A stretch of 64,000 nucleotides of DNA from contig JAZOLH010000037.1 in assembly GCA_045652815.1 (NCBI GenBank), forward strand, positions 691 through 64,690, given 5' to 3'. The first letter of the stretch is position 1; each line of letters starts with the position of its first letter. The DNA comes from Clostridia bacterium. GTDB taxonomy: Bacteria; Bacillota; Clostridia; UBA1381; UBA9506. This document shows positions 12,959 to 25,568 of the stretch, piece by piece. A program made the translations under genes and the position numbers. Under the pieces are notes generated by a model. That model was given only the letters and a program-made list of their open reading frames with translations. It made no database searches and was not told the origin of the DNA.

Positions 12959-13120
12959 TTATTCGGCTACCTCAAAAACGTCTTTGCCGAGACCGCAGAG
13001 AGGGCAAACCCAATCTTCAGGCAGGTCAGCAAAAGAGGTTTCAGGTTCGATGCCGTATTCGGGATCGCCGACTTCGGGATCGTAGATGTAACTGCAAGCG
13101 GTGCATTCGTATTTTTCCAT
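12959..13120 (-). CDS. Rubredoxin
   Basis: 53 aa, [21 protein letters not shown]...DWVCPLCG, with two CxxC pairs. AGGAGG-type RBS before ATG 13120. The ORF-track start at 13171 is rejected. Confidence 0.93.
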
Positions 13121-13236: not shown

Positions 13237-13265
13237 TTGACATTTTGCTCAAAATGTTATATAAT
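13237..13265 (+). promoter_or_regulatory. SigmaA promoter (TTGACA, 17 nt, TATAAT) with an embedded palindromic operator ACATTTT-gctc-AAAATGT (13240..13257)
   Basis: Perfect consensus hexamers with a 17-nt spacer. A perfect 7+4+7 inverted repeat fills the spacer, directly upstream of the DeoR regulator gene. Confidence 0.7.
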
Positions 13266-13307
13266 AACATAGAAATGAAAAAAATTAACATTTTAACACG
13301 TTAGGCG

Positions 13308-14087
13308 GTGAAAATGTTGAAGGACAGACGTCAGGCAATTTCCGATATTATTGAACAACATGGCGAAATCAGCCTGCACGAGTTGGAGGCACTGTTTCCC
13401 GAAGTTTCTTCTATGACACTTCGCCGTGATATCGACTTTTTGGAGCACGAGCATAAGTTGGTGAAAATTAAGGGCGGTGCAATGTCCTTAACCCAACTGT
13501 CCCGCAGTGTTCTGCAAAATGCGGAAGGTGACTATGCCCAGCGTGAGTTTTTAAACTCTGACGGCAAGCGTTCTATCGCAGAACTGGCCGCACCTTATGC
13601 AGAAGCAGGGCGCAGCATTTTCATTGATGCAGGCTCCACAATGATGCAACTGGCAAGACTCCTTCACTCAGGTCGCTTTTCTGTTGTGACAAACGGTGTG
13701 AACATTTCCGTTGAACTGTCTCAGAACAAAAGCGCAACGGTGAATCTGGTGGGTGGAGAATTAAACCGCAACAATATGTGTGTGTCAGGTGCGGGGGCGC
13801 TGGAGCATCTTCGCAACATCAACATCGACATTGCTTTTATGGCCGCCAGTGGTTACACCGCAGAGGATGGCTTCACCAACGGTAGTTACTATGAATATGA
13901 ATTAAAGCGTCACGTGGTGCAAAAAGCCAAAAAGACCATTGTACTGATGGATACATCCAAAATCGGCAAAACAATGACTTACACATTCTGCAGACCCGAA
14001 GATGTTGACATTTTGATTTTAGACAAAAAGCCCGATAGCGCGCTACTTAAAACCGCCAAAGAAACGGGTATGAAAATCCTTTACTAA
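13308..14087 (+). CDS. DeoR/GlpR-family transcriptional regulator
   Basis: N-terminal HTH (ISLHELEALFPEVSSMTLRRDIDFLE) and a C-terminal DeoR sugar-binding-type domain. GTG 13308 or ATG 13314. Confidence 0.88.
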   Translation: MKMLKDRRQAISDIIEQHGEISLHELEALFPEVSSMTLRRDIDFLEHEHKLVKIKGGAMSLTQLSRSVLQNAEGDYAQREFLNSDGKRSIAELAAPYAEAGRSIFIDAGSTMMQLARLLHSGRFSVVTNGVNISVELSQNKSATVNLVGGELNRNNMCVSGAGALEHLRNINIDIAFMAASGYTAEDGFTNGSYYEYELKRHVVQKAKKTIVLMDTSKIGKTMTYTFCRPEDVDILILDKKPDSALLKTAKETGMKILY

Positions 14088-14142
14088 GTTTTTAATTTTA
14101 GCAAAATATATAGTCGCATAGCGACGGAAATGGAGTGTAAAC

Positions 14143-15390
14143 ATGAAAACAAAAGCAGTTAGACTGTATGGTAAAAATGATTTGCGCTTAGAGGAATTCG
14201 AATTACCGGCAATTAAAGACGACGAAATTTTAGCTCGTGTTATTTCCGACAGTATTTGTATGTCCTCTTACAAAGCATCCATTCAGGGTGAAGATCACAA
14301 GCGCGTTCCCAACGACATCGCTGAAAACCCGATCATCATCGGTCACGAATTCTGTGGTGAAATCGTTGAAGTTGGTGCTAAATGGAAGAACGACTGGAAA
14401 GAAGGCGAACGTTTCGCTATTCAGCCCGCTATTAACTACAAAGGTTCCCTGGCAGCGCCCGGTTATTCTTATCCCCACATCGGTGGTAGCTCTACATACG
14501 TTATTATCCCTCACGAATTTATGGAAATGGGTTGCCTGCTGCCTTACAAAGGTGATGCTTTCTTCTACGGCTCCGTTGCTGAACCTATGAGCTGTATCGT
14601 TGGCGGTTTCCACGCTAACTATCACACCACCGCAGGTTCCTATGTTCACGATATGGGTACCGTTATCGGCGGTAACATGGCAATCTTAGCAGGTGTTGGC
14701 CCCATGGGTCTCGGCGCTATTGACTATGCTATCCATAACGAAAGAAAACCCAAACTGTTAGTTGTTACCGATATCGACCAGGCTCGTCTGGATCGTGCAG
14801 CTTCCATCTTAACCGTTGAAGAAGCAAAGAAAAACGGTATCGAACTGATTTACTTAAATACAGGCAACATTGAAGATCCCGTTGGCAAGATGATGGAATT
14901 GACCGGCGGCAAAGGTTACGATGACGTATTCGTATTTGCTCCCGTTAAACCCGTTGTTGAAATGGGTGACCAGATCTTAGGTAAAGACGGTTGCTTAAAC
15001 TTCTTTGCTGGTCCTACCAACACTGAATTCAAAGCAGAATTCAACTTCTACAATGTTCACTATGCTTCCACTCACATCGTTGGTACCAGTGGCGGTAACA
15101 CAGATGACATGATTGAATCCATTCAGATGATGGAAAAAGGTCTGTTAAACCCCGCTATGATGATTACCCACGTTGGTGGTATGGACTCTATCATTGACAC
15201 CACCTTAAACCTGCCCAAGATTCCCGGCGGTAAGAAACTGGTGTACTTAAACATTGATATGCCCATGACTGCAATCGCAGACTTTGCAACTTCCGGCGAC
15301 CCTGTTTTAGTTGAAATCGCTAAGATCGTTGAAAAGAACAACGGTATCTGGTGCAAAGAAGCTGAAGATTATCTCTTGGCTAATAAATAA
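14143..15390 (+). CDS. Zinc-dependent medium-chain dehydrogenase, long (415 aa) sorbose-1-phosphate-reductase-like subgroup
   Basis: Catalytic-zinc motif GHEFCGEIVEVG and Rossmann motif LAGVGPMGLGA. Strongly optimised codon usage. Confidence 0.8.
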   Translation: MKTKAVRLYGKNDLRLEEFELPAIKDDEILARVISDSICMSSYKASIQGEDHKRVPNDIAENPIIIGHEFCGEIVEVGAKWKNDWKEGERFAIQPAINYKGSLAAPGYSYPHIGGSSTYVIIPHEFMEMGCLLPYKGDAFFYGSVAEPMSCIVGGFHANYHTTAGSYVHDMGTVIGGNMAILAGVGPMGLGAIDYAIHNERKPKLLVVTDIDQARLDRAASILTVEEAKKNGIELIYLNTGNIEDPVGKMMELTGGKGYDDVFVFAPVKPVVEMGDQILGKDGCLNFFAGPTNTEFKAEFNFYNVHYASTHIVGTSGGNTDDMIESIQMMEKGLLNPAMMITHVGGMDSIIDTTLNLPKIPGGKKLVYLNIDMPMTAIADFATSGDPVLVEIAKIVEKNNGIWCKEAEDYLLANK

Positions 15391-15485
15391 GAATCAATTA
15401 CCCGGACTTGCGGCTCGCCGCAGGTCTGGGTTTGTGCACGTTTAATGGATGCTTTTGCATCTCATCATAAAAGGAGGAAATTCCA

Positions 15486-16520
15486 ATGAAATTGTATAAA
15501 ATTGCTCCGGCTCTGCGTGCGGCAATGAATGCAGATGTTCTGACATTTGCTGAAACCGGCGCGGCTGATGTAACTTTAGACGGCGTTACCGAAGAAAACG
15601 TTGTTGAAAAAGTTTTAGCAGCAAATTTAGCCGGCAAAAAGAGCGTTGCAGTTGCAGGTCTCGGTGTTTTCACCGCAGCAAAAGGCGCTGAAGCAGGCAG
15701 ACTGGCTGGCAAAATTGCCATCGTTACAGGTTCTGCACAGGGCTTTGGCTTAGGTATTGCAGAAGCAATGATTGCTGAAGGTGCAAACGTTGTGATTGCA
15801 GACTTAAACTTTGATCTGGCAAACAGCGTTGCAGAAGATCTTTGCAAAAAGAACGGTGCAAACTGTGCTATTGCTTGTAAGGTTGACGTTTCCAATGAAG
15901 AATCTGTTGAAGATATGATCGAAGCAACAGTTAAGGGCTTCGGCGGTCTTGACATTTTTGTAAGTAACGCAGGTGTGTTAAAAGCAGGTAGTTTGGAAGA
16001 AATGGATATGAAGGCATTTGAATTCGTAACCAAAATCAACTATTCCGCTTATTACATCTGTGCAAAATATGCTTCCCGCGTGATGAAAATTCAGCACGCA
16101 GTTGCTCCTGAAAAATTCTTTGATATCATCCAGATTAACTCTAAATCCGGTTTGGAAGGCTCCAATAAGAACTTTGCTTATGCCGGCGGTAAGTTCGGCG
16201 GCATTGGTCTGACTCAGAGCTTTGCACTGGAACTGGTTGAATATAATATCAAAGTTAACTCCATCTGCCCCGGTAACTACTATGACGGTCCCCTGTGGTC
16301 CGATCCTGAAAAAGGTCTGTTCGTACAGTACTTAAAAGCAGGTAAAGTGCCCGGCGCAAAAACCGCTGCTGATGTTAAGAAATTCTACGAAGCAAAAACC
16401 CCCATCCGTCGTGGTTGCAACCCCATCGACGTGGCTCGTGCAATTTTCTACATTGTTGAGCAGGAATATGAAACCGGCCAGGCGGTTCCCGTTACCGGCG
16501 GTCAGGTTATGATGAACTAG
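15486..16520 (+). CDS. Short-chain dehydrogenase/reductase (SDR) with a ~70-aa N-terminal extension
   Basis: TGSAQGFG (TGxxxGxG), NAG, and YAGGK (YxxxK). 344 aa versus about 250 aa for a classical SDR. Confidence 0.8.
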   Translation: MKLYKIAPALRAAMNADVLTFAETGAADVTLDGVTEENVVEKVLAANLAGKKSVAVAGLGVFTAAKGAEAGRLAGKIAIVTGSAQGFGLGIAEAMIAEGANVVIADLNFDLANSVAEDLCKKNGANCAIACKVDVSNEESVEDMIEATVKGFGGLDIFVSNAGVLKAGSLEEMDMKAFEFVTKINYSAYYICAKYASRVMKIQHAVAPEKFFDIIQINSKSGLEGSNKNFAYAGGKFGGIGLTQSFALELVEYNIKVNSICPGNYYDGPLWSDPEKGLFVQYLKAGKVPGAKTAADVKKFYEAKTPIRRGCNPIDVARAIFYIVEQEYETGQAVPVTGGQVMMN

Positions 16521-16558
16521 TTTTTAAATTTTAACATTAATATAAAGGAGAGAAAATT

Positions 16559-17908
16559 ATGGCAACACCGGTTATTATGCCCAGACAGGGTCAGTCCGTT
16601 GAAAGTTGTATCATTGCAACTTGGCACAAACAGAAGGGCGACAAAGTTAATGAAGGCGATCTTCTGTTCACCTATGAAACCGACAAAGCGACATTCGATG
16701 AAGAAGCAAAAGTTTCTGGTACTTTAATCGACGTTTTCTTTGAAGAAGGCGACGATGTTGAATGTCTGTTAAACGTTTGCGTTATCGGTGAAGAAGGCGA
16801 AGATACTTCCGCTTTCCGTCCCGCAGGCGCAGCTGACGAAGCTCCTGCAGAAGCTCCCGCAGCAGCACCCGCAGCAGAAGCAGCACCCGCTGCAGCAGCT
16901 GCTCCCGCAGTAGCAGTTTCCGCTACCGCAAAAGACAATCAGTTCATTTCTCCCAGAGCGAAGAACCACGCTGAAAAACTGGGTGTTGATGTTCGTTTCG
17001 CTGAAGGCACAGGCCCCAACGGTCGCGTGATTGAACGTGATGTTGAAGCACTGGCACAGAGCGGCGTAGCATTCACCAAAGCCGCTGCAGCAGAAGGTGC
17101 AGGCAGCAATGATAAATTTGAAGGCACCGGCATCGGCGGTCGCGTAAGCACCGGCGATCTGAAACGCCCCGTTGCAGAAGCAGTTGCAGAAGCAATGAAA
17201 GCAGAAGAAGGCGTAGCATTCACCGATGTACCTCTGACCAACATCAGAAAGGTTATCTCCAAGGCAATGCACAACTCTCTGTCTTCTACCGCTCAGTTGA
17301 CTCTGAACACCAGCTTCGATGCTACCGAAATCATGGCATACCGCAAGAAGCTGAAAGCAAATGCAGAAAAACTGGGTCTGGGCAACATCACATTAAACGA
17401 TATCGTTCTGTATGCTGTTTCCAGAACTCTCTTAAACCACAGAGATCTGAACGCAAACATGCTGGATGACAAAATGCGCATCTTCAATCATGTTAACCTG
17501 GGTGTTGCAGTTGACACACCTCGTGGCTTAATGGTTCCCAACATCTTCTGCGCAGAACTGAAATCTCTGGCTGAAATCAGTGCAGAAACCAAAGAACTGG
17601 CAGGCGCTTGCCAGGGCGGTACCATCAGCCCCGACCTGCTTAACGGCGGTAGCTTCACTGTTACCAACCTGGGCTCTTTTGGTATCGAATCCTTCACACC
17701 TGTCCTGAATGCTCCTCAGACCGGTATCTTAGGTGTTGACACCATCGTTCAGCGTGCTAAAGAAGTTAACGGTGAAATCGTTCACTATCCTGCAATGGGT
17801 CTGTCCTTAACCTTCGACCACAGAGCAGTTGACGGTGCTCCTGCTGCTAAGTTCTTACAGGAACTGAAAGCTAACCTGGAAAACTTCAGTGTTCTGCTCG
17901 CGAAATAA
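16559..17908 (+). CDS. Dihydrolipoamide acyltransferase (E2) of a 2-oxoacid/acetoin dehydrogenase complex
   Basis: Lipoyl domain (YETDKATFD), Ala/Pro linker, peripheral-subunit-binding domain (SPRAKNHAEKLGVD) and catalytic DHRAVDG. Confidence 0.92.
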   Translation: MATPVIMPRQGQSVESCIIATWHKQKGDKVNEGDLLFTYETDKATFDEEAKVSGTLIDVFFEEGDDVECLLNVCVIGEEGEDTSAFRPAGAADEAPAEAPAAAPAAEAAPAAAAAPAVAVSATAKDNQFISPRAKNHAEKLGVDVRFAEGTGPNGRVIERDVEALAQSGVAFTKAAAAEGAGSNDKFEGTGIGGRVSTGDLKRPVAEAVAEAMKAEEGVAFTDVPLTNIRKVISKAMHNSLSSTAQLTLNTSFDATEIMAYRKKLKANAEKLGLGNITLNDIVLYAVSRTLLNHRDLNANMLDDKMRIFNHVNLGVAVDTPRGLMVPNIFCAELKSLAEISAETKELAGACQGGTISPDLLNGGSFTVTNLGSFGIESFTPVLNAPQTGILGVDTIVQRAKEVNGEIVHYPAMGLSLTFDHRAVDGAPAAKFLQELKANLENFSVLLAK

Positions 17909-17937
17909 TTAACATTTTATAGAAAGAAGGCAATACA

Positions 17938-19302
17938 ATGGCTTATGATCTGATCGTGCTGGGCGGCGGCCCCGGCGGTTATCTGGCGGCAGAACGTGCC
18001 GGCCACGCAGGTCTTAAAACCCTGCTGATTGAAAAGCGTAATTTAGGCGGCGTTTGCTTAAACGAAGGTTGCGTTCCTTCCAAAGCGCTGCTGTATTCTG
18101 CAAAAATTTACGACTATGCTCGTTTCTCCGATCATTACGGCGTAACCTGCGAAGGCGTTAAATTTGATCATGCAGCTGTACTGGAAAGAAAGAAAAGAGT
18201 TGTTAACACTCTGGTTTCCGGTATCCGCATGCAGATGAAAGCAAACAAAGTTACTGTTGTTGATGGCGAAGGCGTAATCGACGGTAAAGAGGGTAGTGAC
18301 ATCGTTGTTAAAGTTGGCGACGAACGTTACACCGCACCCCGCCTGATTATCGCAACCGGCTCTATGCCCGTTATGCCTCCCATCCCCGGCGTTAAAGAAA
18401 ACTTTGAAGGCGGTACAGTTTTAACTAACCGCGAAATCTTAGACCTGGCTGAACTGCCCAAAGAACTGGTTATCGTTGGCGGCGGCGTTATCGGTTTAGA
18501 GATGGCTTCTTACTTTAACTCTGCAGGTTCCAAAGTTACCGTTGTGGAAATGATGGACAAGATTGCAGGCCCCACTGATGCTGAAATTTCCAAGATTCTG
18601 ATGAAGAACTACGAAAAGAAAGGCATCGAATTCAAACTGGGTGCAAAAGTTGTTGAAGTTAAGAAAGATGCTGTTGTTTACGAAAAAGATGGCAAAGTGG
18701 AAGAAGTTAAAGCTGATAAAGTTCTGCTGTCCATCGGTCGTCGCGCTGTAACACAGGGCGTTGGCTTGGAAAGCATCGGCGTTCTGACCGAACGTGGTGC
18801 TATCGTAACCGACCGTTTCATGAAAACAAACATCCCCAACGTATATGCTGTCGGTGACGTTAACGGTAAATCCATGCTGGCTCACACCGCTTACCGCGAA
18901 GCAGAAGTGGCTGTGAACAACATCTTAGGTAAAAAAGACATCATGCGCTACAATGCAATTCCTGCTGTTATCTACACCAACCCCGAAGTTGGTAGCGTAG
19001 GTGAAACAGAAGAAACTGCAAAACAGAAGGGTATCGATGTTGAAGTTGCAAACATCACCATGAACTACAGCGGTCGTTATGTTGCTGAAAACGAAGGCGG
19101 CAACGGCATCTGCAAAGTTTTAATTGACAAGAAAACCCGTCGCATGGTTGGTTGCCATATGCTGGCTAACTATGCTTCCGAAATCATCGTTTCTGCCGGT
19201 ATCATGATTGAAACCGAAATGCGTATCGATGACATTAAGGAACTGGTATTCCCCCATCCTACGGTTTGTGAAATCGTAAGAGAAGGTATTTTTCAGCTGT
19301 AA
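17938..19302 (+). CDS. lpdA: Dihydrolipoyl dehydrogenase (E3)
   Basis: GGGPGGY FAD motif, redox-active CLNEGCVPSK, and a C-terminal dimerisation HPT motif. Confidence 0.93.
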   Translation: MAYDLIVLGGGPGGYLAAERAGHAGLKTLLIEKRNLGGVCLNEGCVPSKALLYSAKIYDYARFSDHYGVTCEGVKFDHAAVLERKKRVVNTLVSGIRMQMKANKVTVVDGEGVIDGKEGSDIVVKVGDERYTAPRLIIATGSMPVMPPIPGVKENFEGGTVLTNREILDLAELPKELVIVGGGVIGLEMASYFNSAGSKVTVVEMMDKIAGPTDAEISKILMKNYEKKGIEFKLGAKVVEVKKDAVVYEKDGKVEEVKADKVLLSIGRRAVTQGVGLESIGVLTERGAIVTDRFMKTNIPNVYAVGDVNGKSMLAHTAYREAEVAVNNILGKKDIMRYNAIPAVIYTNPEVGSVGETEETAKQKGIDVEVANITMNYSGRYVAENEGGNGICKVLIDKKTRRMVGCHMLANYASEIIVSAGIMIETEMRIDDIKELVFPHPTVCEIVREGIFQL

Positions 19303-19336
19303 AATTTAATTATTATATAACGAAAGGAAGTTAATT

Positions 19337-21811
19337 ATGCCGAAGTCACAATTTATGGATCCCGATGTGCTGCGTCAGCCCGGATTTCTGGAATTTTCTC
19401 CTATCCCGGTAAACCAGTACAACAAAACAATCAAAGATGAAAGCAAGAATTTCTCCAAGGACGATTTCCTGCGCATTTACCGCGATATGGCTATCATCCG
19501 TGAATTCGAACAGATGCTGCTCGATATCAAAACCAAGAGCGAATATCAGGGTATTGAATACAACAACCCCGGTCCGGCTCACTTATCTTTAGGTCAGGAA
19601 GCGTCTGCTGTTGGTCAGGCTTATCTGCTGGATAAAAACGACTACATCTTCGGTTCTCACAGAAGCCATGGCGAAATCCTGGCAAAAGGTCTTTCTTGTA
19701 TCCACAAGTTAGACGACAAAGAACTGCTGACCGATATGGAAAGCTTCTTTGACGGTGCTACATACAGAGTTGTAGAAGGCAAAGAAAAAGATAAGGGTAA
19801 CGTTAAAGACCTGGCTATCGACTTCTTGCTCTACGGTGCACTGGCAGAAATCTTTGCTCGTGAAACCGGTTTTAACAAGGGTCTGGGCGGCTCCATGCAC
19901 GCTTTCTTCACTCCCTTTGGTATTTACCCCAACAACGCTATCGTAGGTGGTAGTGCTACCATCGCTATGGGTGCTTCTATGTTCAAGAGAATCAATGGCA
20001 AACCCGGTATCGTTGTTTCTAACGTTGGTGACGCTTCTATGGGTCGTGGTCCCGTTTGGGAAGCTCTGAACATGGGCTCCATGGACCAGATCACTCAGTT
20101 GTGGGAAGAAGGCCACAACAAGGGTCTTCCCATCATCTTCAACTTCTTCAATAACCTGTACGGTATGGGTGGCCAGACCGTTGGTGAAACCATGGCTTAC
20201 AACATTCTGGCTCGTGTTGGTGCCGGCGTAAGCCCCACTCAGCTGCATGCAGAACGTGTTGACGGTTACAACCCGCTGGCAGTTATTGATGCAATGAGAA
20301 GAAAGATCGACATTCTGAACAACCAGGGTGGTCCCGTTCTGATGGATACTCTGACCTACAGAATGACCGGTCACTCTCCCTCTGACGCTTCTACTTACAG
20401 AACTAAGGAAGAGGTTGAAAAATGGGCAGAGCATGACGTTCTGGTTAACTACGAAAAGAAACTGGTTGAAGCTAAAGTTGCTAAATCTGACGATTTTGCT
20501 TCTATGCGTGAAGACATCAGAGAACGTATGATGAAGATCGTTAAACTGGCTATCGACGACAGCGTTTCTCCCAGAATGGACCTGCAGAAGAACCCCGGCA
20601 TCATTGCTGATATGATGTTCTCCAACGAAAAGATCGCTAAGATGGAAGATCGTGAACCCGACGTTCTGATCCCGAAAGAAGAAAACCCCAGAGTTCAGAA
20701 GATCGCGAAGAAAGAACGTTTCGGTATCGACAAGAACGGCAAACCCGTTTCCAAAAACAAGGTTTACCAGCTGCGTGACGGTCTGTTCGAAGCTATCATT
20801 GATAAATTCTACGAAGATCCGACCTTAGTTGCTTACGGTGAAGATAACCGTGACTGGGGCGGCGCTTACGCTGTATATCAGGGTCTGACTGAATCTCTGC
20901 CTTACCACAGATTCTTCAACTCTCCCATTTCCGAATCTGCAATCGCAGGTTCTGCAGTAGGTTACGCAATGAGCGGCGGTCGTGTTATCGCTGAAATCAT
21001 GTACTGTGACTTTATCGGCTGCTGTGGTGATGAAATCTTCAACCAGCTGGCTAAATGGCAGTCCATGAGTGCAGGCGTTCTGAAAATGCCCGTAATCATC
21101 CGTGTATCCGTTGGTTCTAAGTACGGCGCTCAGCACTCTCAGGACTGGACCAGTATGTGTGCTCACGTACCCGGCCTGAAAGTTGTATTCCCCGTAACTC
21201 CTTACGATGCTAAAGGTATCATGAACTCTGCTCTGAACGGTACCGATCCCGTTATCGTATTCGAAAGCCAGAGAATTTATGATGTAGGCGAACAGTTCCA
21301 CGAAGGTGGCGTTCCCGAAGGTTACTATGAAGTGCCCATCGGCGAACCCGACATCAAGAAAGAAGGTAAGGATGTTACCATCCTGACCATCGGTGCAACC
21401 CTGTACCGTGCTCTTGATGCAGCTAAAGAACTGGAAGAAAAATATGGTGTTTCTGCTGAAGTTATCGACGCTAGAACCATCGTTCCCTTCAACTACGAAA
21501 AAGTTTTAGAATCTGTTAAGAAAACAGGTCGTATCGTTCTGGCTAGTGATGCTTGTACCAGAGGTTCTGCCCTGAACACCATCGCTCAGAACATCACCGA
21601 AATGGCATTCGATTACCTGGATGCTCCTCCGGTTGTTGTCGGTGCACAGAACTGGATCACTCCCTGTCACGAACTGGAAAATGCATTCTTCCCGCAGAAA
21701 GAATGGATCATCGATGCAATCCACGAAAAGATCCTGCCTCTGCCGGGTCATGTTGCAACTACCAACTTCACTGAAACTGAACAGATCAGAAAGAATAAGT
21801 TAGGTATCTAA
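19337..21811 (+). CDS. Fused E1 alpha-beta (TPP-dependent dehydrogenase E1 alpha + transketolase-like beta) in one 824-aa polypeptide
   Basis: N-terminal half has the TPP motif GDASMGRG...NFFNN. A ~100-aa charged linker follows, then a C-terminal E1-beta pyrimidine-binding and C-terminal domain ([16 protein letters not shown]...). Confidence 0.88.
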
Positions 21812-21831
21812 TTGCAATTAACCTAAATGCA

Positions 21832-21863
21832 AAGAGCCACCGCGTTTGCGGTGGCTCTTTTTT
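21832..21863 (+). terminator. Intrinsic terminator of the dehydrogenase operon (copy 1 of an identical 32-nt element)
   Basis: AAGAGCCACCGCGTTTGCGGTGGCTCTTTTTT. GC-rich 9-bp stem plus a T6 run. Confidence 0.88.
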
Positions 21864-25523: not shown

Positions 25524-25536
25524 GTATTAAACATAG

Positions 25537-25568
25537 AAGAGCCACCGCGTTTGCGGTGGCTCTTTTTT
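25537..25568. terminator. Bidirectional intrinsic terminator (copy 2 of the identical 32-nt element)
   Basis: Same 32 nt as 21832..21863. Sits between the convergent Big_2 gene and the Cys-rich ORF. Confidence 0.88.

Follow-up and report, generated by a model that had tools for sequence, protein, structure and literature searches.

In the genome of an uncultured gut bacterium of the class Clostridia (GTDB lineage Bacillota; Clostridia; UBA1381; UBA9506; GenBank assembly GCA_045652815.1), a stretch of 64,000 nucleotides of contig JAZOLH010000037.1 (hereafter, the window) holds at positions 13237-21863 a six-gene operon that encodes a DeoR-family regulator, two dehydrogenases and a thiamine pyrophosphate (TPP)- and lipoamide-dependent complex. 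This operon is a minimal version, without kinase, aldolase domain or PHP-like protein, of a sugar-linked lipoamide module that occurs widely and has been noted in the literature yet is uncharacterized. It probably acts as a DeoR-repressed accessory branch of 6-deoxyhexose catabolism, the sugar being, in the host, L-rhamnose freed by GH106-type rhamnosidases. The link to 6-deoxyhexoses was drawn because of a gene fusion, a synteny repeated in several phyla, published data on Caldicellulosiruptor, and the rha genes of the host itself. The explanation as a whole, in which this branch is combined with a shift of the carbonyl group along the sugar phosphate and with cleavage of the resulting ketol, is the best one at hand and is put forward tentatively, as falling a little short of probable.

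Relatives of the encoded enzymes

The operon is real and well delimited. Its six open reading frames (ORFs) run in one direction, with intergenic gaps of 55, 95, 38, 29 and 34 nt, and the order DeoR, medium-chain dehydrogenase/reductase (MDR), short-chain dehydrogenase/reductase (SDR), E2, E3 and E1 was found again in many related contigs, a recurrence showing that the arrangement is not due to chance. The proposal of the initial annotation that one regulated unit couples two dehydrogenases to a TPP/lipoamide complex was borne out.

The MDR was 55% identical to E. coli YggP over the full length (99-100% of the query) and, in tblastn searches, 48.5-50% identical to annotated sorE genes (L-sorbose-1-phosphate reductase) of Klebsiella, Citrobacter and Serratia. 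Its size also agreed with that of the SorE/YggP family (~410 aa), to which it belongs as a putative ketose-1-phosphate reductase. Cys39 and the GHE motif (residues 67-69) were present, and the Cys4 motif of the structural zinc was absent. Similarity to butanediol or sorbitol dehydrogenase structures was marginal (E = 5e-7 for the butanediol dehydrogenase PDB 6ie0), and the only NCBIfam match, to IolM, was weak and uninformative. The partner genes in modules from Bacteroidota encoded proteins 60-66% identical to this MDR.

The closest characterized relative of the SDR was sorbitol-6-phosphate dehydrogenase (SrlD). Scores for the SrlD equivalog NF009050 (236.6 bits) stayed below the cut-off of 307, with E = 7e-46 against PDB 5o3z and 36-38% identity to annotated srlD, while models for acetoin reductase and butanediol dehydrogenase gave weaker matches (128-135 bits). 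Homologues of both members of the L-sorbose pair, SorE and SorD/SrlD of Klebsiella and E. coli, therefore stand side by side in the operon. In the L-sorbose pathway, SorE and then glucitol-6-phosphate dehydrogenase form a consecutive pair that shifts the carbonyl along a hexose phosphate. The pair in the window differs in that its SDR is below the SrlD cut-off, in being coupled to a lipoamide complex, and in that no EIIC of the phosphotransferase system (PTS; PF03609 and PF02378 searched) was found in the host genome, which is 91% complete.

Residues 1-70 of the SDR aligned with the middle region of proteins of 650-690 aa that join a class II aldolase-like domain to this type of SDR; judging from this alignment, the extra N-terminus is a vestige of that middle region rather than a new domain. 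Fusions of this kind were present in 25 of 80 related loci, and their aldolase-like half retains the GGGNTS, PSVE, HxH and NHG motifs. The architecture is shared with RhaEW (YuxG), a proven L-rhamnulose-1-phosphate aldolase/L-lactaldehyde dehydrogenase that produces lactate via lactaldehyde (PMC3870299). The SDR of the window is a homologue of the RhaW half, but it lacks the aldolase half and reached only 153.7 bits against TIGR02632 (RhaEW; cut-off 567.75). The fused relatives also remained below this cut-off (236-306 bits) and were therefore considered paralogues, not orthologues, of RhaEW. In two genomes of the same genus (G019 and G015), the aldolase-like half occurs as a separate gene of ~365 aa directly after rhaA. 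The product of this gene (L111, G019:C22; L112, G015:C28) shared 42-43% identity with the aldolase-like half of the fusions. The presence of an E. coli-type rhaD after rhaA in the host, against the ~365-aa gene in the same genus, looks like a non-orthologous displacement.

The three components of the complex carried the expected motifs. E2 showed the lipoyl motif ETDKA at residue 40, an E3-binding domain and the catalytic DHRAVDG at residue 420, and E1 showed the TPP motif GDAS...NN (231-273), the alpha His in GHS (345-347), the beta Glu in ISES (531-534) and the beta His in QHSQD. The catalytic residues of E1 matched those of pyruvate dehydrogenase (PDH) E1 in alignments to PDB 1ni4_A and 3duf_B; these residues are common to all E1 types, so the match does not discriminate between PDH and the others. 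In contrast, E1 alpha, E1 beta and E2 all missed the curated NCBIfam cut-offs for PDH, and widely so (TIGR03182, 196.6 vs. 393.85; NF006667, 247.7 vs. 321; TIGR01349, 273.8 vs. 445).

At least 8000 relatives of E1 were found; the best 120 were 73-97% identical, and among species-representative genomes identities of 66-70% were recorded in Bacteroidota, Lentisphaerota and a metagenome-assembled genome (MAG) of Desulfobacteraceae. An E1 phylogeny, which the initial annotation had proposed as a check, was run on the beta parts as a quick maximum-likelihood tree, with references labelled by context and without Swiss-Prot AcoA/B, bona fide PdhA/B or BkdA/B. All fused E1s of ~770-850 aa, including copies on Rhizobium and Agrobacterium plasmids, formed one clade, which was split (SH-aLRT 100) from a clade with Klebsiella AcoB and the Aco-like E1 of C. 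difficile. This second clade also holds the split E1 of the host, other split E1s and other fused forms. The E1 of the operon appears to belong to a strongly conserved clade of its own, with members in Clostridia, Bacteroidota, Lentisphaerota and Rhizobiaceae.

The split E1 of the host belongs to a second lipoamide cluster in the same genome (contig C67; L013: 4826-13678), in which a divergent gene for a GntR regulator is followed by genes for a 348-aa transaldolase/FSA-like protein, a 360-aa MDR, E1 alpha and beta as separate chains, E2, E3 and an archaeal-type (type II) GAPDH. Its E1 alpha scored 380 bits against the TIGR03182 cut-off of 394. Both lipoamide clusters also co-occur in a related genome (G010).

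Sugar-linked neighborhoods and rhamnose genes of the host

In order to describe the genomic context of the module, 80 related loci from Bacillota, Bacteroidota, Lentisphaerota and a Desulfobacteraceae MAG were kept, 58 of which span at least 14 kb. Within these 58 loci, E2 was present in 56, MDR in 43, E3 in 38 and SDR in 37 (21 as aldolase fusions), followed by an unnamed protein of ~405 aa with a weak PHP match (30), DeoR and GntR regulators (20 each), a rhaB-like kinase (11) and rhaA (6). The arrangement DeoR-MDR-SDR-E2-E3-E1 was that of Clostridia, while loci from Bacteroidota showed a divergent GntR gene and the order E2-(E3)-E1-PHP-like-aldolase/SDR-MDR, with either a tandem class II aldolase or an FGGY kinase next in line. 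The Dysgonomonadaceae module was divergent from AraC-rhaT-rhaA-rhaB, with rha genes above NCBIfam cut-offs, and one Oscillospiraceae contig carried rhaB-aldolase/SDR-PHP-like-MDR-E2-E3-E1. In the genus of the host, the operon stands alone, with no adjoining rha or fuc genes.

The ~405-aa protein was present in 36 of the 80 loci, in several phyla (e.g., L057: 12746-13981 and L041: 4395-5612), and matched no Pfam or NCBIfam family besides the weak PHP hit; tblastn with three members of this family gave no match in the host genome. HAD phosphatases were encoded in some loci. Both types of protein may be taken as signs of phosphorylated intermediates.

Two further contexts were recorded. A locus from another family of the same order (L014, G028:C76, 15361-18823) contains DeoR-E2-E3-E1 alone, together with a divergent lipoate-protein ligase gene and a sodium:solute symporter gene, and a search of that genome (98% complete) yielded no orthologue of the MDR or the SDR. 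On plasmids of Rhizobium sp. CIAT894 (L105) and Agrobacterium tumefaciens (L106; 12597-17100), a fused E1 ~60% identical in its beta part is followed by a lone lipoyl protein of 78 aa and an alpha/beta hydrolase, an arrangement that resembles a split AcoC. These Rhizobiaceae clusters lie within sugar-uptake regions and also encode a SorC-type regulator and, in Rhizobium only, a PfkB kinase; sugar ABC transporter genes and an RbsD/FucU-family gene are close by, and no E3 was found in the vicinity.

The same six functions were found in one locus, with a single E1 gene, in the Caldicellulosiruptor module Athe_0698-0705, a likeness judged by published annotation. It is part of the cluster Athe_0695-0706 of C. 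bescii, equivalent to Csac_0865-0876 of C. saccharolyticus (PMC8579813, PMC4187192), whose genes include fucA, rhaD1, 'SrlD', 'SorE', lipB, lipA, E2, E3, E1, a DeoR regulator named 'RhaR2', and rhaA (PMC8579813). This cluster differs from the operon of the window in having added fucA, rhaD1, lipB, lipA and rhaA and in the position of the regulator, after E1; the host operon has six genes only, with rhaA-rhaD and the rhaB-like gene on other contigs. The cluster is reported to be upregulated on rhamnose, the role of the extra genes being described as unclear (review, PMC4187192). The complex was labelled "predicted dehydrogenase in rhamnose utilization" and suggested to handle lactaldehyde, yet it was listed among genes without assigned function (PMC8579813); the nearest characterized relatives of its E1, E2 and E3 were Aco proteins, at 33-42% (PMC8579813 supplement). 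No paper characterizing the pathway or the module biochemically was found in the literature search. With respect to the question raised in the initial annotation, whether an identical cluster had already been characterized, the same gene set was therefore known as rhamnose-associated (PMC8579813, PMC4187192), and a biochemical characterization was not encountered.

The host assembly (1.38 Mb in 88 contigs; Oscillospiraceae type) encodes several relevant functions outside the operon. Genes rhaA (626 bits vs. a cut-off of 572) and rhaD (357 vs. 170) are adjacent on contig C29 (L103: 7259-9312), beside galK and galT. A rhamnulokinase-like (rhaB-like) gene that scored 397 bits, below its cut-off, lies on contig C24 (L104: 2955-10510) between two genes for ~1020-aa GH106 alpha-L-rhamnosidase-like proteins; such a kinase gene was present in 35 of 41 relatives. 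A lipoate-protein ligase (LplA) is encoded on contig C12, and the genome also contains 2-oxoacid:ferredoxin oxidoreductases, Fe-type alcohol dehydrogenases and aldehyde dehydrogenases. The statement of the initial annotation that transporter, kinase and aldolase genes are missing holds within the operon, with rhaA-rhaD, the rhaB-like kinase and LplA being encoded elsewhere in the genome. The argument derived from it, that their absence speaks against a phosphosugar route, was not sustained, a phosphosugar being the more likely substrate.

Proposed route and competing explanations

Gene identities, intact catalytic motifs, operon structure, gene fusions and conserved synteny are shown by the data. 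Beyond these, a mechanism of five steps is proposed, which is possible rather than probable and in which substrates, order and products are all conjectural. First, RhaA and the RhaB-like kinase, encoded on other contigs, would make L-rhamnulose-1-phosphate. The SorE/YggP-like MDR would then reduce the C2 keto group with NADH, yielding a 6-deoxyhexitol-1-phosphate, and the SrlD-like SDR would, at the methyl end, re-oxidize the penultimate carbon; the product, a 1-deoxy-ketohexose-6-phosphate, is a methyl ketol. This ketol would be cleaved by the fused E1 in the manner of acetoin dehydrogenase. Finally, the acetyl group would pass through lipoyl-E2 to CoA, with E3 regenerating lipoamide and producing NADH, and a tetrose-4-phosphate would remain. 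A sugar phosphate may serve as the inducer that frees DeoR from the palindrome over the -10 box. The carbonyl-shift route was favored because in it each enzyme acts as its nearest characterized relative does. Moreover, as no EIIC of the two PTS families was found, the ketose-1-phosphate would have to come from a kinase, the rhaB-like gene on contig C24 being the candidate. Rhamnulose and fuculose differ only at C4, so that, by our reasoning, the routes from both sugars would converge, C4 becoming the aldehyde carbon. In its broadest form, the proposal would give anaerobes of gut and sediment from several phyla a hitherto undescribed, aldolase-independent route for rhamnose and fucose, in which C5-C6 are cut off as acetyl-CoA, a common tetrose-4-phosphate is formed and no 1,2-propanediol is lost; this generalization is regarded as somewhat unlikely.

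With regard to the cleavage step, no well-known lipoamide system other than acetoin dehydrogenase is, to our knowledge, directed at a ketol instead of a 2-oxoacid. Ketol cleavage of the acetoin-dehydrogenase type, as proposed in the initial annotation, still appears to be the most coherent chemistry, and E1 scored below the curated PDH thresholds. As in the AcoA/AcoB/AcoC/AcoL systems of Cupriavidus necator, Clostridium magnum, Klebsiella and Bacillus subtilis, a TPP-dependent E1, a lipoyl E2 and an E3 are encoded together in the window. The operon differs from Aco systems in its fused E1 alpha and beta, in the order E2-E3-E1, in partner genes of sugar-phosphate type, in a DeoR regulator with a sigma-70-type promoter instead of the sigma-54 activator AcoR, and in an E1 that clusters apart from Klebsiella AcoB and Aco-like split E1s. 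A lipoamide complex in an anaerobe with a sugar-type regulator, as here, is also found in C. difficile, where acoRABCL is co-transcribed with a regulator called DeoR-family (bioRxiv 10.1101/2023.07.28.551048) and annotated in RefSeq as a sugar-binding transcriptional regulator. Acetoin did not induce that operon, and in Voges-Proskauer tests the acetoin of an acoA mutant was not significantly altered (bioRxiv 10.1101/2023.07.28.551048). In contrast with the operon of the window, it has a split E1 in canonical order and no MDR or SDR, and its E1 beta, only 39% identical to that of the present operon, falls in the other clade.

Several observations weigh against the proposed branch and its mechanism. 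The presence of the complex does not track that of rhaA or fucI among 41 non-independent relatives: fused E1 was found in 26 of the 41, rhaA in 11 of the 26 genomes with fused E1 and in 10 of the 15 without it, and fucI in 22 of 26 and 12 of 15, respectively. The fucI gene itself was above cut-off in 33 of the 41 genomes searched (host included) and was not found in the host. In genome G010 (93% complete), which has the module, fucI, rhaA and the kinase were searched and none was found. The SDR was absent from several otherwise intact loci, and in two genomes with DeoR-E2-E3-E1 (97-98% complete) neither MDR nor SDR was found. The intact aldolase-like fusion partner and the RhaEW precedent would point to a step after the aldolase, and the host genome carries a bona fide rhaD. 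On stereochemical grounds, the product would be D-threose-4-phosphate, not erythrose-4-phosphate, so that an isomerase would be needed, and none was identified. Furthermore, C. saccharolyticus grown on rhamnose forms 1,2-propanediol, acetate, H2 and CO2 at 1:1:1:1 (PMC4187192), and a 1:1 ratio of propanediol to acetate is the prediction of the classical aldolase route.

The main rival is a lactaldehyde branch, which is considered unlikely. According to it, RhaD or a fused aldolase-like domain would yield dihydroxyacetone phosphate (DHAP) and L-lactaldehyde, the RhaW-like SDR and the MDR would convert the latter to pyruvate via lactate or methylglyoxal, and the complex, as a dedicated PDH, would form acetyl-CoA and NADH in place of excreted 1,2-propanediol. 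This would explain the aldolase fusion, but neither the SorE-like enzyme nor the phosphatases. The conserved class II aldolase motifs of the fusions and the proven activities of RhaEW are in line with such a branch, whereas a SorE-family MDR is without known precedent as a lactate or lactaldehyde 2-dehydrogenase and the PHP-like and HAD phosphatases of many modules would be left without a phosphorylated substrate. Lactaldehyde could arise from the rhaA-rhaD pair of the host, or through the RhaE-like gene after rhaA in genomes of the same genus, but the ferredoxin-dependent oxidoreductases and Fe-type alcohol dehydrogenases of the host could already handle both pyruvate and lactaldehyde. The branch would also agree with the catalytic residues of E1, with the occurrence of the complex without SDR or MDR in some genomes and with the lactaldehyde handling proposed by the authors of PMC8579813; it is at odds with the PDH cut-offs missed by E1 alpha, E1 beta and E2. 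The propanediol:acetate ratio of C. saccharolyticus speaks against this route too (PMC4187192).

An improbable alternative is a pathway of the sorbose/glucitol kind for a hexitol or ketose phosphate, with no relation to deoxy sugars, in which the complex would be only a co-regulated pyruvate or 2-oxoacid dehydrogenase. It would account for the SorE/YggP-like and SrlD-like identities, for a DeoR-type regulator that best matched SrlR, AgaR and GlpR, for the operon standing without adjoining rha or fuc genes in the genus of the host, and for a module that does not follow rhaA or fucI in relatives. However, as no EIIC of either PTS family searched was found in the host, there is no evident source of sorbose-1-phosphate, and this pathway leaves aside the repeated adjacency to rhaB, rhaA and rhaT, the RhaE-like fusion in several phyla and the Caldicellulosiruptor cluster described as rhamnose-associated.

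The least likely explanation, and a very improbable one, is that of the initial annotation, in which the two dehydrogenases would oxidize a diol or ketol that is small and uncharged (2,3-butanediol/acetoin, or 1,2-propanediol from other gut microbes), with cleavage to acetyl-CoA by an acetoin dehydrogenase thereafter: the acetoin-dehydrogenase type of the complex, the weaker SDR matches to acetoin reductase and butanediol dehydrogenase models, an operon devoid of kinase and transporter, and the module of G010 fit it, but the MDR is far nearer to SorE/YggP (49-55%) than to butanediol dehydrogenase, the regulator is not a sigma-54 AcoR, E1 lies apart from Klebsiella AcoB and Aco-like split E1s in the quick tree, and the context in other phyla is one of sugar-phosphate metabolism. 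In particular, the YggP/SorE-like MDR, the SrlD-like SDR, the aldolase fusions and the neighboring rhamnulokinase, L-rhamnose isomerase and RhaT genes all counter a diol as substrate.

Rhamnose and fucose rank among the major sugars of plant pectin and of host mucin. According to textbooks, gut anaerobes convert them to DHAP and lactaldehyde and excrete the latter as 1,2-propanediol, which feeds propionate producers. If the proposed branch of 6-deoxyhexose catabolism is correct, with the methyl end directed to acetyl-CoA, predicted fermentation balances would change, acetate, ATP and NADH being increased and cross-feeding by propanediol reduced. A function would also be provided for a lipoate-dependent complex in strict anaerobes whose pyruvate is already oxidized by ferredoxin enzymes, and the chemistry of acetoin dehydrogenase would be widened to include sugar phosphates. 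The module is widespread, given the number of E1 relatives and the related fused E1 on Rhizobiaceae plasmids. Caldicellulosiruptor is genetically tractable, and cultured Rhizobiaceae with fused E1 would be tractable hosts as well.

Regulatory signals and transcription

Positions of the genes, promoter and terminator given in the initial annotation were confirmed, but its description of a single terminator was not, as a hairpin with a weak U tract lies between MDR and SDR (Table 1). The -35 and -10 boxes of the promoter were kept upstream of deoR in related loci, and a scan of the operon interior revealed no further strong promoter-like site.

Table 1. Features of the operon and their positions in the window
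Feature	Position	Strand	Details
Sigma-70-type promoter, TTGACA-17-TATAAT	13237..13265	+	12/12 consensus positions
Candidate DeoR operator ATGTTATATAATAACAT, perfect 7-3-7 palindrome over the -10 box	13254..13270	+	17 bp, conserved
Second conserved A/T-rich box AAAAAATTAACATTTT, in the promoter-deoR interval	13278..13298	+	Same distance in several related loci
DeoR-family repressor, 259 aa	13308..14087	+	PF08220 HTH_DeoR (1.6e-12); PF00455 DeoRC (8.6e-43)
SorE/YggP-family Zn-dependent MDR, 415 aa, putative ketose-1-phosphate reductase	14143..15390	+	ADH_N; ADH_zinc_N
Intra-operon hairpin after the MDR stop codon	15400..15431	+	14-bp stem; -38.5 kcal/mol; z -4.6; weak U tract
SrlD/RhaW-like SDR, 344 aa, vestigial N-terminal segment	15486..16520	+	SDR core from residue 76
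E2, dihydrolipoyl acyltransferase, 449 aa, one lipoyl domain	16559..17908	+	PF00364; PF02817; PF00198
E3, dihydrolipoyl dehydrogenase, 454 aa	17938..19302	+	TIGR01350, 491 bits vs. cut-off 408.8; CLNEGC redox motif
Fused E1 alpha-beta, TPP-dependent, 824 aa	19337..21811	+	PF00676 E1_dh; PF02779 Transket_pyr; PF02780 Transketolase_C
Intrinsic terminator	21831..21860	+	13-bp stem; T tract

The DeoR protein stayed below all NCBIfam equivalog cut-offs. Of 18 related loci examined, in which DeoR was 56-85% identical, 14 matched the palindrome ATGTTATATAATAACAT with at most three substitutions, and three further loci end at the ATG within ATGTTATATAATAACAT, apparently a mis-called ORF start. A genome-wide search at two mismatches or fewer found no second copy of the palindrome, for instance none before rhaA or rhaB. 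Based on these results, DeoR is probably a locally acting, self-regulated repressor with ATGTTATATAATAACAT as its putative operator. The A/T-rich box AAAAAATTAACATTTT may represent a second regulator site or a leader element. A palindrome in the promoter spacer, ACATTTTGCTCAAAATGT (13240-13257), was also considered as the main operator and was rejected because it is not conserved in related loci.

Transcription was assessed in three RNA runs from one gut metatranscriptome study, whose contigs may derive from relatives. An RNA-library contig of 5.3 kb, from a relative ~94% identical, spans 15201-20541; it starts in the 3' part of the MDR gene, crosses the MDR/SDR hairpin and reaches into E1, which gives weak support for read-through and for expression in a close relative. 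The contigs of the three runs did not cover deoR or extend past the terminator, and such gaps prove nothing.

Two features adjoin the operon. Just upstream of its promoter and divergent from it, on the minus strand (12959-13120), lies a 53-aa ORF with two CxxC pairs, rubredoxin-like by eye, which was covered by RNA-library contigs in two runs. Downstream, near-identical terminator hairpins (21831-21860 and 25535-25566) flank the adjoining gene for a transglutaminase/Big_2 surface protein of 1188 aa.

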